A stretch of DNA of 41,567 bases, from sequence record NC_019709.1; one strand, given 5' to 3'. Below the pieces are notes generated by a model. It searched no databases. It saw only the letters and a list, made by a program, of their open reading frames with translations, and had not been told where the DNA came from. Below, in pieces: positions 14,443-22,260 of this stretch. Position numbers and translations under genes: made by a program. This DNA is from Escherichia phage mEpX1. Position 1 is the stretch's first letter. Each line of letters opens with the position of its first letter.

Positions 14443-17400
14443 ATGGCTACAGATAAAGTGTTAAAAGGCCGCAAGGGCGGCAGCTCAAGTTCCCGAACCC
14501 CTACCGAACAGCCTGATGATCTGCAATCTGTAGCGAAGGCAAAAATCCTCGTTGCGCTTGGGGAAGGTGAGTTTGCAGGGCAGCTCACCGGCAAAGATAT
14601 CTACCTGGACGGAACAGCGCTGGAGAATGCTGACGGCTCCCAAAACTTCAGCGGGGTAACGTGGGAGTTTCGCGCGGGAACTCAGGCGCAAAAATATATT
14701 CAGGGTATTCCCGGTACCGAAAACGAGATCAGCGTAGGAACTGAGGTATCAAGTGCCACAGCCTGGACGCGCACGTTTACCAATACGCAGCTTTCAGCAG
14801 TTCGCCTGCGTCTTAAATGGCCCTCGCTTTTCAAACAGGAAGACGACGGCGATCTGGTGGGTTACTCGGTCAATTATGCGATTGACCTACAGACGGACGG
14901 CGGCACATGGCAGACGGTACTCAATACCAGCGTGACCGGTAAAACGACGTCTGGTTATGAGCGCAGCCACCGTATCGATTTACCGCAGGCTGGCAGCACC
15001 TGGACAATACGTCTGCGTAAGATTACCTCTGACGCCAACAGCGCGAAGATCGGCGACACGATGATGCTGCAGAGCTTCACCGAGGTGATTGACGCCAAAC
15101 TGCGCTACCCGAACACCGCGCTGCTCTACGTCGAATTCGACTCAAGCCAGTTCAACGGCTCTATTCCTCAAATTTCATGCGAACCGCGCGGCCGCGTTAT
15201 CCGCGTTCCAGATACCTACGACCCTGAAACCCGCACTTATAGCGGTACATGGACCGGTGCGTTTAAGTGGGCATGGACGGATAACCCTGCGTGGATTTTT
15301 TACGACCTGGTTGTTTCTGACCGGTTCGGCCTTGGGCACCGTTTGACCGCTGCGAATATTGATAAATGGACGCTTTATCAGGTTGCTCAGTATTGTGATC
15401 AGATGGTACCAGACGGCAAAGGGGGCAACGGTACAGAACCACGTTATACCTGCAACGTGTACATTCAGGACCGGAACGACGCCTACACAGTCCTGCGTGA
15501 TTTTGCCGCTATCTTCCGTGGCATGACCTACTGGGGCGGGGATCAGATTGTGGCCCTGGCTGACATGCCGCGCGATGTTGATTACAGCTATACGCGCGCT
15601 AACGTTGTTGGCGGTCGCTTCACCTATTCGAGCAGCACCACGAAAAGCCGCTACACCACAGCGCTGGTTTCATGGTCAGACCCGGGTAACGCTTATGCCG
15701 ACGCAATGGAGCCGGTATTTGAGCAGGCGCTGGTGGCGCGATACGGCTTCAATCAGCTGGAAATGACAGCCATCGGCTGCACCAGGCAGTCAGAGGCGAA
15801 CCGAAAGGGGCGCTGGGGTATTCTCACCAACAACAAGGATCGCGTTGTTTCGTTTGATGTCGGGCTGGACGGAAACATTCCGCAGCCGGGCTACATCATC
15901 GCCGTGGCAGACGAGCTGCTTTCCGGAAAGGTTATGGGCGGCCGCATCAGCGCCGTTAACGGTCGCGTTATCAAACTTGACCGCGTAGCTGATGCAGCAC
16001 CAGGTGATCGCCTTATTCTCAACCTGCCTTCCGGAGCGTCGCAGAGCAGGACCATTCAGGCCGTGAACGGGGAATCAGTCACAGTCACCACGGCATACAG
16101 TGAGACGCCACAGGCCGAAGCTGTTTGGGTGGTTGAATCTGACGAGCTTTACGCGCAGCAGTATCGTGTTGTCAGCGTCTCCGACAACGGTGATGGCACT
16201 TTCTCAATCACCGGCGCATGGCACGACCCGGATAAATATGCCCACATCGATACCGGAGCCATCATTGACCAGCGGCCGGTGAGCGTGATCCCGCCTGGTA
16301 ACCAGTCGCCGCCTGCGAACATCGTGATCAGCTCGTTTTCCGTGGTGCAGCAAAATATCAGCGTCGAAACGATGCGCGTGAGCTGGGACCAGGCGCAGAA
16401 CGCTATCGCCTATGAAGCGCAATGGCGCCGCAACGACGGGAACTGGGTTAACGTGCCGCGCACCTCCACCACGTCATTCGACGTCCCGGGGATTTATGCC
16501 GGGCGCTACCTGGTGCGGGTGCGCGCAATCAATGCCGCAGAAATTTCATCCGGATGGGGCTATTCAGAAGAGAAAACGCTGACGGGTAAAGTGGGCAATC
16601 CACCTAAGCCGGTTGGCTTCATCGCTTCTGAAAATGTGGTTTTCGGCATCGAGCTGAACTGGGGATTCCCGGCGAATACCGACGACACGCTGAAGACGGA
16701 AATTCAGTACAGCCTGACCGGAACCGAGGACGATGCGATACTGCTGGCCGATGTGCCTTATCCGCAGCGCAAATATCAGCAGATGGGCCTCAAGGCTGGG
16801 CAGATTTTCTGGTACCGCGCTCAGCTGGTGGACCGCAGCGGCAACGAATCAGGGTACACAGAATGGGTGCGAGGACAGGCCAGCATCGATGTTTCCGACA
16901 TCACAGATGTGATCCTGGAGGACATGAAAGGCTCCGATACGTTCAAAGACCTGATCGAGAACGCTGTGGACAGCAATGAAAAAATTGCTGGCATGGCTGA
17001 CGACATCAAACAGGCTAACGATGAACTTGAGCTCCAGGCGCAGGAAATCGCAAAAAACGCGCAGGACATTGGGCAGGTTCAGACCAGCGTTAATGAGCTT
17101 TCTAGCACGGTCGGTGATGTGTCGTCTTCTCTCTCAGATCTTGAGCAGACTGTTGCGACTGCTGATACCGCACTGGGCCAGCGAATCGACAGCATCAGCG
17201 TGTCTATGGACGGCATGACGGGCGGGGTGAAGAACTCTGCTATCGCAATTATCCAGAACGGGCTGGCACAAGTGGCTACGCGTAAATCGTTGTCAGCTTC
17301 GGTCGCAGGGAACAGTGCGCAGCTGGATCGTATTGATGAGGTAATCGTTAACGAGAAGGAGGCAACGGCGCGTTCTCTGCTGAGCCTGCAGACGGATGTC

Positions 17401-17994
17401 AACGGCAACAAGGCATCCATAAACAGCCTGAATCAGACGTTCTCCGACTATCAGCAGGCTACGGCCACGCAGATAAACGGCATTACGGCGACCGTGAACG
17501 GGCATACCTCCGCCATCACCACTAACGCTCAGGCGATAGCCAACGTTAATGGCGACCTCAGCGCGATGTACAACATCAAGGTTGGCGTTTCCAGCAACGG
17601 TCAGTATTACGCCGCGGGGATGGGTATCGGCGTGGAGAATACGCCATCCGGCATGCAGTCGCAGGTTATCTTCCTGGCTGATCGCTTCGCCGTCACCACG
17701 GCGGCCGGAAATAGCGTGGCTTTGCCGTTCGTGATCCAGAACGGGCAGACATTCATCCGGGCCAGTTTCATCCAGGACGGCACTATCAGCAACGCAAAGA
17801 TTGGTAATTTTATCCAGTCGAACAATTATGTTGCTGGTTCTGCTGGCTGGAAGCTTGATAAAGGGGGGACGTTTGAGAACTACGGTTCGACTGCTGGTGA
17901 GGGAGCCATGAAACTGACAAATCAGACGATCAGCGTCAAAGATGGCAGTAATGTTCTTAGGGTGCAGGTTGGCCGATTAACGGGAGTATTCTGA
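14443..17994 (+). CDS. J: Host specificity / central tail fibre protein J
   Basis: 1183-aa ORF at the J position after I; size typical of lambda-like gpJ. Confidence 0.9.
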   Translation: MATDKVLKGRKGGSSSSRTPTEQPDDLQSVAKAKILVALGEGEFAGQLTGKDIYLDGTALENADGSQNFSGVTWEFRAGTQAQKYIQGIPGTENEISVGTEVSSATAWTRTFTNTQLSAVRLRLKWPSLFKQEDDGDLVGYSVNYAIDLQTDGGTWQTVLNTSVTGKTTSGYERSHRIDLPQAGSTWTIRLRKITSDANSAKIGDTMMLQSFTEVIDAKLRYPNTALLYVEFDSSQFNGSIPQISCEPRGRVIRVPDTYDPETRTYSGTWTGAFKWAWTDNPAWIFYDLVVSDRFGLGHRLTAANIDKWTLYQVAQYCDQMVPDGKGGNGTEPRYTCNVYIQDRNDAYTVLRDFAAIFRGMTYWGGDQIVALADMPRDVDYSYTRANVVGGRFTYSSSTTKSRYTTALVSWSDPGNAYADAMEPVFEQALVARYGFNQLEMTAIGCTRQSEANRKGRWGILTNNKDRVVSFDVGLDGNIPQPGYIIAVADELLSGKVMGGRISAVNGRVIKLDRVADAAPGDRLILNLPSGASQSRTIQAVNGESVTVTTAYSETPQAEAVWVVESDELYAQQYRVVSVSDNGDGTFSITGAWHDPDKYAHIDTGAIIDQRPVSVIPPGNQSPPANIVISSFSVVQQNISVETMRVSWDQAQNAIAYEAQWRRNDGNWVNVPRTSTTSFDVPGIYAGRYLVRVRAINAAEISSGWGYSEEKTLTGKVGNPPKPVGFIASENVVFGIELNWGFPANTDDTLKTEIQYSLTGTEDDAILLADVPYPQRKYQQMGLKAGQIFWYRAQLVDRSGNESGYTEWVRGQASIDVSDITDVILEDMKGSDTFKDLIENAVDSNEKIAGMADDIKQANDELELQAQEIAKNAQDIGQVQTSVNELSSTVGDVSSSLSDLEQTVATADTALGQRIDSISVSMDGMTGGVKNSAIAIIQNGLAQVATRKSLSASVAGNSAQLDRIDEVIVNEKEATARSLLSLQTDVNGNKASINSLNQTFSDYQQATATQINGITATVNGHTSAITTNAQAIANVNGDLSAMYNIKVGVSSNGQYYAAGMGIGVENTPSGMQSQVIFLADRFAVTTAAGNSVALPFVIQNGQTFIRASFIQDGTISNAKIGNFIQSNNYVAGSAGWKLDKGGTFENYGSTAGEGAMKLTNQTISVKDGSNVLRVQVGRLTGVF

Positions 17995-19043: not shown

Positions 19044-19277
19044 ATGAAAAGGCTAATTATCTGCATAGCGGGCGCTTTAATGCTGTCTGGTTGCGCTGGT
19101 GTACTTGAGAAACAGAAACCGATTTGCAGCGGCACGGCATATATGGGTGGCCATGAGAATACCGTTATGATTTACGCCGTTCGAAAGCAAAACAACCAGA
19201 CGCAATACCGGGCCGGATATCCCTTTAACTGGCGCTGGGTAAGTGCGAACACATTCACAAGCACGACATGTAAATAA
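19044..19277 (+). CDS. Small lipoprotein (moron; possibly Cor-like)
   Basis: 77 aa; signal peptide with lipobox L-S-G-C; AT-rich island between J-associated genes and tail fibre; terminator-like hairpin downstream. Confidence 0.5.
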   Translation: MKRLIICIAGALMLSGCAGVLEKQKPICSGTAYMGGHENTVMIYAVRKQNNQTQYRAGYPFNWRWVSANTFTSTTCK

Positions 19278-19296
19278 CTCATGATTTTCAATGCAA

Positions 19297-19319
19297 ACCT
19301 CGCCTCGGCGGGGTTTTTT
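19297..19319 (+). terminator. GC-rich hairpin plus T-run after lipoprotein gene
   Basis: cctcgcctcggcgggg followed by tttttt. Confidence 0.4.
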
Positions 19320-19335: not shown

Positions 19336-20553
19336 ATGCTTTATAACACTGGAACCATCGCCATTAACGGAAACAGCGCCACCGGCACGGGCACGAACTG
19401 GACGGCACCCGCCAGCCAGGTTCGCGCTGGCCAGACGATTATCGTGATGTCTAACCCGGTTCAGATGTTCCAGATTTCATCCGTGAACAGCGCCACGTCA
19501 ATGACGGTAACGCCTGCTGCATCACCGGCGCTGAGCGGCCAGAAATACGGGATTCTGATTACTGACAGCCTGTCAGTTGATGGGCTGGCTCAGAGCATTT
19601 CTCAGCTGATAAAAGAATACGATGAGAATATTGGGGCATGGGAATCTTTTGCCACTACCTCAGCAAACCAGAACATCACCGTTACCATCAATGGCACCCC
19701 TGTAACGATCCCCGGCATCGGCAAATTACTGCAGAAAGGGACAAATGGTGCACTGGCCGTAAAGGACGGCGGTACCGGCGCAACGAATGCTGCCGACGCT
19801 CGCACAAACCTCGGTTTAGACAAAACGGTAAGTACCGAAGGAGACCAGTCCATTTCAGGAGTGAAAAACTTCACTGGCACTTTCAAAATCACAGCAAACT
19901 ATCCGCAAGTCACTTTATGGGCTACATCCAAGCCAAACGGCACTTATGGCAGGGTAGTTACTTTTGGTAACGATGGCAATAAAGCATTCATTGCTGCAAG
20001 GCAATGGGAGGGCGGTAACAACACATGCGTGACCTATCTGCCCGCTTTTAAGGATGGATATTTCACATTCTGGACAACCTCAAACACGACAGTAACCTCT
20101 GATGGGACCATCAAGCAGGCGTCCCCCATTGCCAGAATCGTCAAGTCTGAGCAAGAGAATCAGCGAGCGGATGTTGGGGATGATGGATTCACGTGGTGCG
20201 GTTGCGGCACGTCTAACGCGGAGGCTGAGGGAGTATCCATTTCTCGCCTTGACGTAGGTGTTTACGTGATCACCGGCTCTGCAGGGCTGGCTTCCGAGGG
20301 CTGGCAATTACTACCACCGATGGACCCCGGCGGCATGGGGGAGTTGGGTATAGTCGAGGCAGAGCAAACCGACAACGGCGAGCTGACAATCCGCCTGTTT
20401 AGGCGCAAATATATTCTGAGCGATGAAGGAGAGATCGTCAAATCGAAAGGTGAACCGATGGACGTGCCGGCGAACAGCTGGATCGATGTTCGCCTTGGTA
20501 TGCCTGACGATTCCCTGTTTAACCAGCGGATGAGTCAGGATCCTCAGAAATAG
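19336..20553 (+). CDS. Side tail fibre protein (constant part plus currently expressed variable part)
   Basis: 405 aa from ATG 19336 (SD ggag); Gly/Thr/Asn-rich fibre-like composition; a gix-like crossover site lies in-frame at 19806-19817. Confidence 0.8.
   Translation: MLYNTGTIAINGNSATGTGTNWTAPASQVRAGQTIIVMSNPVQMFQISSVNSATSMTVTPAASPALSGQKYGILITDSLSVDGLAQSISQLIKEYDENIGAWESFATTSANQNITVTINGTPVTIPGIGKLLQKGTNGALAVKDGGTGATNAADARTNLGLDKTVSTEGDQSISGVKNFTGTFKITANYPQVTLWATSKPNGTYGRVVTFGNDGNKAFIAARQWEGGNNTCVTYLPAFKDGYFTFWTTSNTTVTSDGTIKQASPIARIVKSEQENQRADVGDDGFTWCGCGTSNAEAEGVSISRLDVGVYVITGSAGLASEGWQLLPPMDPGGMGELGIVEAEQTDNGELTIRLFRRKYILSDEGEIVKSKGEPMDVPANSWIDVRLGMPDDSLFNQRMSQDPQK
19799..19824. repeat. 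Invertase crossover site, left (gix/hix-like)
   Basis: Near-palindrome caaacc-tc-ggttta inside the fibre gene; matches the AAACC-NN-GGTTT core of Gin/Hin sites as I recall them. Confidence 0.6.
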
Positions 20554-21311
20554 TGGAACGCTGATTCCAGATGCTGTTCTGCGGCATCTGGACACGTACA
20601 GAAATATACTGGTCATATGGAATATCTACCGGATCGCCATCGTTGATACCCTGCAGTTCGTTCCTGGCAAATGCTGGCGCTCCAGGATGTGTGCGGTGAT
20701 AGGTTTTCACCAGCACCGAGCCATCTGCGTTGACCTCATAATCCAGCCAGATAAGCGGTTGCTTGTTGCGGTCGGTGGGGATGTCAAAACCGCCATTGAT
20801 GCCGCCCCAGGCCGCGTCAGAGTTAAGCCCCTCACAGCCTTCTACCAGAATTCACCTGTGGTCAGACGCGTTACGTTGCAGCCCTCCGATTCTTCATTGG
20901 TATGGTATGAGCCATCAGAAAAAACCTTTACCACAGGCGATGCGGCTTTTAGTGTGCCATCACTGGCCTTGGTCGTATTGCCGGTGGTGTATGCCTGCAC
21001 CCAGGAGGACCATTTAGATAGTGCCATACCCCTAGCGGCAATCCTGCCGTCAGAACTAATCTGAAGCTGACCAACGCTACCATTTCCATCTGAACCTCCA
21101 GTACGAGTCATGGCCAGAATGCCCGCGTACTGATCGAACCAGTTAACCCCCGTGCTACCACCACCGGATGAAAAGCCATTGTATTTAATCTCATTTGCAT
21201 CAGTGACGGCTGATGCGTTCAAATAGGTGGAACCAATACCAAAAGCCCCTACCTGAATTACGTTCCCCGCTAAAGAACCTACGTCCCTGATAGCACTACT
21301 TCCCAAACCGA
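19811..21311. other. Invertible DNA segment carrying alternative tail-fibre C-terminal regions
   Basis: Bounded by inverted crossover sites with identical central TC; convergent fibre coding regions overlap at 20519-20553; serine invertase gene adjacent. Confidence 0.6.
20519..20850 (-). CDS. C-terminal domain of the alternative fibre in a shifted frame
   Basis: Minus-strand frame offset -1 from Sv' encodes a domain homologous to the plus-strand fibre C-terminus (shared ...R-[VL]-x-MP-x-x-S-[LI]-[FW]-NQR... ending); Sv' hits a TAG at 20842-20844 where the other orientation reads through. Confidence 0.4.
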
Positions 21312-21317
21312 CATTTT
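20842..21317 (-). CDS. Alternative tail-fibre variable segment (Sv'), promoterless in this orientation
   Basis: Minus-strand frame opens right after the right crossover site; shares a TT-[GS]-NTT...SDGT-[IL]-K-x-ASP block with the plus-strand fibre; inversion would fuse it in-frame to the constant part. Confidence 0.6.
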
Positions 21318-21323
21318 ATAGAT
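21298..21323. repeat. Invertase crossover site, right (degenerate half-site)
   Basis: Minus strand reads aaaatg-tc-ggtttg, sharing TCGGTTT with the left site in inverted orientation. Confidence 0.5.
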
Positions 21324-21379
21324 TGCTCTTGAGTAGCCTGGCCGATAACTTCACCTGATTTTTTTGCAGAATTAACTGG

Positions 21380-21937
21380 GTGAAAAATATGCAAATTGGC
21401 TATGTAAGGGTGTCAACAAATGACCAAAATACAGATCTCCAGCGCCAAGCTCTCGAACGCGCAGGATGTGAACAGGTTTTTGAAGAAAAAATGAGCGGGA
21501 CGGTAGCGAACCGGCCAGCGCTCAAAAAGCTTCTGCGGACTCTGAATGCGGGCGATACACTGGTGGTGTGGAAGCTGGACAGGATAGGCCGCAACGTTCT
21601 GCATGCGCTGTTGATGTTCCAGCAGTTACAGGAAAAGGGTATCAACTTCCGCAGTATTACCGATGGCGTGGATCTCAAAACAGCCAGCGGCCGCTATAAC
21701 TTTCGTAACATCCTTTCCGCAGCACAATATGAATCTGATCTTAATAGCGAACGTACCTTAGCAGGGCTGGCCGTAGCCAGGGCAAAAGGGCGAGTTGGTG
21801 GTCGCAGGCCTAAGTTCACGGATGAGCAATGGCGGGAAATGGGGGAGCGGATGGCAACCGGTGAATCACGACAAAGCGTATCAAAAACGTATGGAGTAGG
21901 GCTCTCAACTCTGTATAAAAAGTTTCCAGCTAGCTAA
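21380..21937 (+). CDS. Serine DNA invertase (Hin/Gin/Pin/Cin family)
   Basis: 185 aa; N-terminal catalytic motif IGYVRVSTNDQ with nucleophile Ser, resolvase core, C-terminal HTH; adjacent to the invertible segment. Confidence 0.9.
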   Translation: MKNMQIGYVRVSTNDQNTDLQRQALERAGCEQVFEEKMSGTVANRPALKKLLRTLNAGDTLVVWKLDRIGRNVLHALLMFQQLQEKGINFRSITDGVDLKTASGRYNFRNILSAAQYESDLNSERTLAGLAVARAKGRVGGRRPKFTDEQWREMGERMATGESRQSVSKTYGVGLSTLYKKFPAS

Positions 21938-22260
21938 TAACGGGAAAGAAACAGAGAAGGGCACAAATATTGTGTACTTTAATGTGCCCTTTAATTTATT
22001 GATTGGTGGTTGAATTGTCCGTAACTTTTTGATTTAAGTGCAAATTTCTAATAAATTAGAACACTTTCTTAAATTGTCATTTGGCATATTACGAACAATT
22101 CCGCGTAAAAACGTTCTGTTACGCTAAACCCTTATCCAGCAGGCTTTCAAGGATGTAAACCATAACACTCTGCGAACTAGTGTTACATTGCGTGTAGCTT
22201 TGAGTGGGCAACTTTGTGTACACTTTTGTGTACCCAAAAACAAAAATGTGTACCCATTCA
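21938..22260. other. Probable attP region with repeated TGTGTAC motifs
   Basis: AT-rich noncoding stretch between invertase and integrase; TGTGTAC occurs at about 21971, 22216, 22227 and 22247. Confidence 0.4.

Follow-up and report, generated by a model that had tools for sequence, protein, structure and literature searches.

The minus-strand coding sequence that faces the side tail fibre gene of phage mEpX1 is very probably a spare C-terminal side-fibre cassette of a Gin-type invertible segment, inactivated by a recent single-base deletion inside its PF25670 domain. mEpX1 is a lambdoid phage (Hendrixvirinae, Cuauhtlivirus), and the analysis covered the whole of record NC_019709.1 (41,567 nucleotides, hereafter the window). 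The original prediction had noted that the alternative fibre tip is divided between two reading frames, and had considered decay of the off-state variant, an assembly error, a programmed shift or a separately made downstream module. Judged by comparison of sequences, the frame split is due to a single 1-nt deletion and the silent cassette is a pseudogene, so that the first of these readings, a single-nucleotide frameshift by decay, is the one upheld; it is supported by intact alleles in an otherwise identical context and by a single alignment gap against the closest relative. In the literature on mEpX1 or the PV3405xx records, we found no description of this locus.

Organization of the fibre locus

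The side tail fibre gene (stf) consists of a constant part (Sc) and a variable part (Sv), with an intact PF25670 domain at the C-terminal end of Sv. It is opposed by the spare tip cassette (Sv'), beyond which lies a gene labelled 'DNA invertase' in the second mEpX1 record, PV340543.1, with the integrase gene next in the gene order (Table 1). The overlap at the convergent ends of Sv and Sv' has the same length, 35 bp between called genes or ORFs, in six related loci (L006–L009, L012 and L013), and a promoter and terminator scan of this overlap revealed nothing relevant.

Table 1. Features of the mEpX1 fibre region (window positions) and matches of its products to PF25670
Feature	Position	Strand	Details
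J gene	14443-17994		upstream of the fibre region
Two small ORFs, then cor	cor 19044-19277		between J and stf
Terminator-like hairpin	19295-19316		between cor and stf; promoter/terminator scan
stf, side tail fibre, 405 aa	19336-20553	+	ORF; 'side tail fiber protein' in PV340543.1
Constant part of stf (Sc)	to about 19810	+	N-terminal portion
Left crossover site (candidate)	19799-19824		inside stf; CTCGCACAAACC TC GGTTTAGACAAA; core TC 19811-19812
3' overlap of Sv and Sv', 35 bp	20519-20553		convergent ends, around palindrome AGGATCCT
Spare tip cassette (Sv')	about 21309 down to 20519	-	opposed to stf
Sv' first frame	20845-21309	-	NVGLGSSAIRDVG...NVTRLTTGEFW, then TAG 20842-20844 (+ strand CTA)
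Sv' remainder, -1 frame	20519-20851	-	ILVEGCEGLNSDAAWGG...SEDPDSSAG; stop TAA 20519-20521
1-nt deletion	between 20849 and 20850	-	lost A on the minus strand, T on the + strand
Right crossover site (candidate)	21298-21323		inverted relative to the left site; ACTTCCCAAACC GA CATTTTATAGAT; core GA 21310-21311
Gin/Hin-family serine DNA invertase, 182 aa	21389-21937	+	ATG 21389; ORF opens at GTG 21380
PF25670 in the expressed fibre	residues 250-390		profile 1-132; E 1.9e-32, 112.6 bits
PF25670 in the first silent piece	last 44 residues		profile 1-44; E 1.4e-14, 54.7 bits
PF25670 in the second silent piece			profile 46-133; E 3.2e-36, 124.7 bits
PF25670 in the one-base-repaired Sv' fusion			profile 1-133; E 1.2e-57, 194.1 bits

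Two reading frames within one domain

Three-frame translation of the minus strand showed that the first Sv' frame, which has no separate start in register with Sc, is succeeded by a -1 frame (ILVEGCEGLNSDAAWGGINGGFDIPTDRNKQ...MPQNSIWNQRSTISEDPDSSAG) that is open from 20851, the two frames overlapping by only about 10 nt (GGTGAATTCTGGTAG). Both silent pieces and the expressed fibre were compared with Pfam PF25670 (Phage_tail_C_2; 133 profile positions, gathering score 27 bits). The expressed fibre is uninterrupted over the equivalent region, as had been proposed, and follows the profile almost from end to end. The two silent pieces match successive portions of the same profile, and the break must therefore lie inside one domain rather than between two. 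The resemblance of the silent frames to the C-terminus of the plus-strand fibre is, to judge from these matches, much too strong to be due to chance. A search of the fibre pieces against NCBIfam yielded no useful family. Repair of one base gives an Sv' ORF of 261 open codons with no second disruption. The coordinates, residues and motifs originally given for the split tip proved accurate in both the translation and the Pfam analysis.

The missing base

The minus strand at the lesion reads GGTGAAT^TCTGGTAG, where relatives have GGTGAATATCTGGTAG (GAA TAT CTG GTA, encoding EYLV). In mEpX1 the A of TAT is gone and the codons have become GAA TTC TGG TAG, so the 'F' and 'W' of GEFW are themselves products of the frame shift. 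The deletion (TAT to TT) also created an EcoRI site, GAATTC, at 20848-20853, where the intact allele has GAATATC. A blastn alignment of Sv' with the closest relative found (L005, which encodes P0001, an 85% identical protein) extended over 730 nt with 84% identity and contained a single gap, at the frame junction.

We scanned for the junction pattern allowing zero or one extra base. All six matching contigs (four from IMG/VR and two from metagenomes) had the same flanks plus one A, GGTGAATATCTGGTAGAAGGCTG, translated as TGEYLVEGCEGLNSDAAWGG, and the deleted allele occurred in none of these six environmental contigs. Aligned at the lesion, the environmental allele is GGTGAATATCTGG (GEYLVEG) and that of mEpX1 GGTGAAT-TCTGG (GEFW*). 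The identity of the context in six contigs, apart from the additional A, indicates that the ancestral codons were GAA TAT CTG GTA (E-Y-L-V). The junction context had no match in the genomes scanned, one per species. In a megablast search of 20400-21400 against 5,426 complete E. coli genomes, none covered the silent cassette, the only matches being short ones to the invertase or the fibre end. The protein collection, in an exact look-up, contained neither the mEpX1 fragments nor Stf, and this look-up is therefore uninformative on the presence of the deleted allele elsewhere.

Relatives with uninterrupted tips

The repaired Sv' retrieved 2071 relatives from the protein collection at E<=1e-20, among them complete fibres (about 420-445 aa) and ORFs in the silent orientation (about 245-275 aa). 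All 12 of the protein relatives that were aligned are uninterrupted at the junction (consensus GEYLVEGC), and 94 phage records match at least 80% of the repaired protein as one place by tblastn. Residues 539-785 of SU10 gp12 (PDB 7z47_D) align with the whole of the repaired Sv' (E 1.3e-64), again unbroken at the junction. SU10 differs from mEpX1 in being a podovirus, in which gp12 is the long tail fibre proximal protein carrying the distal gp13, and only residues 1-90 of gp12 were built in the published structure, the aligned domain being without experimental coordinates (PMC9509320).

The most informative relative is IMGVR_UViG_3300011905_000013 (L013), which has the same two tip types, the 35-bp overlap and an adjoining invertase, with the segment flipped: the Sv'-type tip is joined to Sc as a 432-aa fibre, the tip of the mEpX1 Sv type is silent, and both are intact. 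Around the lesion, L013 and mEpX1 agree over 31 nt but for the extra A. In another relative (L012) the Sv'-type fibre is fixed, and all that is left of the other tip is a 77-aa remnant. The original prediction had called for comparison with related invertible segments, and both L013 and phage LLS, described below, have two intact cassettes. The prediction had also recognised that a two-frame arrangement conserved in relatives, with a separate start for the downstream domain, would indicate two genuine genes; this layout was found in no relative examined, all of them being single-frame.

The AlphaFold model of one relative (P0106) has a mean pLDDT of 68.5, and the second strand of a beta-hairpin, in a block with a pLDDT of 92, starts at the junction. 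A Foldseek search with the P0106 domain model against the PDB gave no match at E<=0.001, and a tip or knob class could not be assigned.

The putative invertible segment

The left candidate crossover site overlies the codons for ...TNLGL, the position of the annotated IR-L of LLS, and in their longer contexts the two sites read ...CACAAACC TC GGTTTAGACA... (left) and ...TTCCCAAACC GA CATTTTATAG... (right). The GA core of the right site is the reverse complement of TC, and the two candidate sites thus share their core dinucleotide. Both are homologous to the sites of LLS (annotated IR-L and IR-R), L013 and others. The outer half of the right site is CATTT in mEpX1 and CGTTT in relatives, a change that might impair the switch itself. 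Residues 1-181 of the invertase align with phage Mu Gin (PDB 3uj3; E 3.4e-63), and the protein carries the serine motif YVRVSTNDQ. Inversion of 19811-21311 in silico fused Sc in frame to Sv' (...ARTNLGLGSSAIRDVG...), giving a product of 314 aa, or of 422 aa with the A restored. mEpX1 does not have two complete alternative tips, as the silent cassette stops at 314 aa after fusion. Inversion in mEpX1 is inferred, with indirect support from the opposite orientations of the segment in the window and in the related contig L013.

Comparison with known systems

The locus resembles the Mu G segment, the P1 C segment, the e14 P region and p15B Min in that a Gin-like invertase adjoins the invertible segment, the segment is bounded by inverted sites of the AAACC-NN-GGTTT type, the left of them within the fibre gene, and a constant N-terminal part can acquire either of two opposed C-terminal cassettes. 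It differs from these segments in concerning the side fibre of a lambdoid siphovirus (Hendrixvirinae), in the lack of U/Tfa assembly genes within the segment, and in the convergence of the cassettes with a 35-bp overlap, one of them being frameshifted. The layouts of Mu, P1 and e14 used for this comparison are those of established knowledge and PMC12315714.

The closest described parallel in layout is phage LLS (PQ299149.1, genes 22 and 23 and the 'Fin' invertase). The gene order is the same in both phages (J, two small ORFs, fibre, opposed fibre cassette, invertase), the sites are homologous, and LLS has a PF25670-type tip, 61% identical to the repaired Sv'. Unlike mEpX1, LLS has both cassettes intact, annotated inverted repeats of 57 bp and no 3' overlap. 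Its switching, of the Mu/P1 kind, was proposed by its authors by inference only (PMC12315714).

Laboratory lambda offers a parallel for the lesion. A frameshift in stf distinguishes lambda PaPa from Ur-lambda (Hendrix and Duda 1992, as summarised in PMC12617516), and lambda can form plaques on E. coli K-12 without side fibres (PMC12617516). In both cases a lambdoid phage propagated on E. coli K-12 has a frameshift in its side tail fibre sequence. However, in lambda it is the expressed gene that is disrupted, with loss of the fibres, whereas in mEpX1 the disruption is confined to the silent alternative.

Age of the lesion

Nei-Gojobori dN/dS ratios were calculated for the repaired cassette against two relatives. 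The values were 0.16-0.28 upstream of the junction and about 0.08-0.09 for the out-of-frame part downstream of it; L013 gives no value, since synonymous sites are saturated between it and Sv'. These ratios indicate that practically all of the divergence of the out-of-frame part took place while it was coding. The low downstream dN/dS and the lack of a second disruption mark the deletion as recent.

Alternative explanations

A sequencing or assembly error, with GAATATC in the true phage and an intact silent cassette, is the strongest of the competing explanations, and we consider it unlikely. Single-base indels are the commonest kind of error, there is just one other mEpX1 record in the phage collection (PV340543.1), and both records come from the same laboratory stock, so that they could share a sequencing or consensus error. 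Indel sequencing errors are concentrated in homopolymer runs, and the base lost here was outside any such run. PV340543.1 is 100% identical to the window apart from circular permutation, over all 41.5 kb and including the lesion. It starts at attP and closes with four bases (GGTT) that the window lacks, which suggests that it is a separate record, of a prophage read from a lysogen. Furthermore, the lengths of PV3405xx records differ from those of the older JQ records (40804 against 39578 for mEp234; 42880 against 42780 for mEp043), which favours independent sequencing of the PV records over copying. The presence of the same sequence in a lysogen-derived record thus weighs against the assembly error originally suggested as a cause of the split.

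It is very improbable that the truncating allele has been retained because it is useful, with an A/B host-range switch turned into an on/off switch that yields a subpopulation without functional side fibres. The invertase and both crossover sites look intact, the side fibres of lambda are dispensable for plaque formation, as noted above, and PMC2762979 reports that rapid adsorption can lower the fitness of lambda in a biofilm-like environment. Nevertheless, the allele occurs once, no other contig carrying it, and the low dN/dS downstream of the junction points to a very recent event rather than a maintained state.

A programmed -1 ribosomal frameshift within GAA TTC TGG TAG, completing the flipped fibre, has next to no probability in our estimation. 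The shift needed is indeed -1, and slippage within the overlap of about 10 nt would give a full-length product. However, the overlap contains no X XXY YYZ heptamer, and the predicted folding of the 102 nt downstream of it is no stronger than that of shuffled sequences (z = -0.31). Apart from the one missing A, the flanks match those of intact relatives base for base; no frameshift signal has therefore evolved, and the two-frame arrangement is absent from every relative examined. With the slippery heptamer, the downstream structure and a conserved layout all missing, the programmed shift envisaged in the original prediction can be set aside.

Equally hard to credit is a reading of the locus as two genuine genes, the second of which would supply the downstream piece in trans, as a chaperone-like or complementing module, from a start of its own such as GTG 20716. 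A 65-aa ORF headed by this GTG does exist on the minus strand (20519-20716), but the codon is the internal valine of a conserved ...DGSVLVKTYHR in relatives, none of which has a separate gene, it has no AGGAGG-like Shine-Dalgarno signal just upstream, its product would take in no more than roughly the second half of the domain, the break itself lies inside one domain (profile position 44/46 of 133) and within the confident beta-hairpin of the P0106 model, and Pfam and NCBIfam gave PF25670 alone, with no peptidase S74 or chaperone family.

Consequences for the phage

Inactivation of the spare cassette by a recent deletion is the reading followed here. In the sequenced orientation, the intact 405-aa fibre is made and the deletion has no effect, because the cassette expressed from the + strand is intact. 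After a flip by the invertase, Sc would be joined in frame to Sv' and translation would end after 314 aa, giving a product without about 89 of the 133 terminal-domain positions (about two-thirds). Flipped phage would most probably lack a functional side fibre of the alternative type. The mutation may have persisted because the alternative tip was not under selection during growth on E. coli K-12; given that lambda forms plaques without its side fibres and that its laboratory form has an stf frameshift, the simplest history would be that a spare tip free of selection was lost.

The system is of a known kind, and the mutation that made its spare cassette a pseudogene is an ordinary one; no new coding mechanism is involved, and the case has little conceptual novelty. 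Its worth is practical, in annotation and in experimental work with mEpX1. Lambda PaPa was already an example of a laboratory lambdoid phage with a side-fibre frameshift, and mEpX1 provides another. In PV340543.1, the minus-strand 'hypothetical protein' of 126 aa corresponds to part of the frameshifted cassette and deserves a pseudogene label. It is distinctly unlikely that mEpX1 alternates between fibre-bearing and truncated-fibre virions as an on/off phase variation of adsorption rate; if it did, an on/off switch would replace the A/B host-range switch and might be favoured in dense or biofilm-like hosts. In studies of tail-fibre switching or host range, flipped mEpX1 should be expected to have no functional alternative tip. 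Restoration of one A should resurrect this tip, the nearest protein-search relatives of which are mostly Enterobacter-named.

The silent tip cassette and its relatives

The silent tip cassette of mEpX1 (Sv') has different nearest relatives on either side of its one-nucleotide deletion (between 20849 and 20850). Upstream of this junction, the nearest sequence was that of L005, the closest related locus (dS 0.47, versus 1.6 for L012, a locus with a fixed Sv'-type fibre), and downstream this order was reversed (L012, dS 0.53; L005, dS 1.5). The cassette is mosaic, and these dS values point to recombination inside it. The 126-aa 'hypothetical protein' annotated in PV340543.1, the second, lysogen-derived mEpX1 record, is an internal-ATG fragment of the frameshifted Sv', and a pseudogene label is called for.

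Coordinates of features in the mEpX1 window
Feature	Position	Strand	Remark
Invertible segment	19811-21311		
PF25670 domain, expressed copy	20083-20505	+	
PF25670 domain, silent copy	20519-20980	-	
Silent cassette (Sv')	20519-21309	-	
35-bp overlap of the 3' ends of the convergent tip cassettes	20519-20553	both	spans 8-bp palindrome AGGATCCT
126-aa 'hypothetical protein' (PV340543.1)	20842-21222	-	
Right crossover site	21298-21323		
attP crossover	22070-22078		near 22074

Because the two tip cassettes overlap at their 3' ends, either strand of the shared stretch codes for the C-terminal tail of one tip, and the two tails must co-evolve. An identical 35-bp overlap between called genes or ORFs was found in L012, in L013 (the same cassette pair flipped) and in four metagenome contigs (L006-L009); the two fibre genes of phage LLS do not overlap and are 61 bp apart. 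In L006-L009 (e.g. L006 993-3504), an Sv'-type cassette adjoins an intact invertase. Gene calling divides its partner copy into a PF25670 fragment of 72 aa and a second gene, of 237 aa, that matches no Pfam family; these contigs may hold a further version of the locus that has partly decayed or is built differently. The same cassettes are ordered differently in two IMG/VR contigs (L010 5336-7930 and L011 810-3404), which come from sister samples, and in L011 the expressed-type tip is broken at about residue 354, with its terminal part inverted. These rearrangements could reflect additional recombination sites or metagenome assembly chimeras spanning the invertible region.

The PF25670 domain: folding and a possible docking role

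Tail-fibre assembly (U/Tfa) genes are present in the classical invertible segments of Mu, P1 and e14. In contrast, the mEpX1 segment consists of two tip cassettes only, and the absence of a U/Tfa gene from it suggests that no dedicated chaperone is needed for the folding of PF25670-type tips. No neighbours of the AlphaFold model of the PF25670 domain were found in the PDB. In SU10 gp12, a homologue of the repaired Sv', only residues 1-90 were built, leaving this domain without an experimental structure; in SU10 it forms the end of the proximal fibre protein, to which the distal protein attaches (PMC9509320). Given this arrangement, the domain may act as a docking module in addition to forming a tip.

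The attP crossover and the right crossover site

The attP crossover, placed by the permutation point of PV340543.1, lies in TCTTAAAT|TGTC, a short way upstream of the gene for the integrase. At the right crossover site, mEpX1 has GA CATTT in the outer half, versus GA CGTTT in LLS, L013 and the related locus L003. Judging from this substitution, the CATTT variant might weaken the action of the invertase, in which case the mEpX1 switch itself may be decaying.
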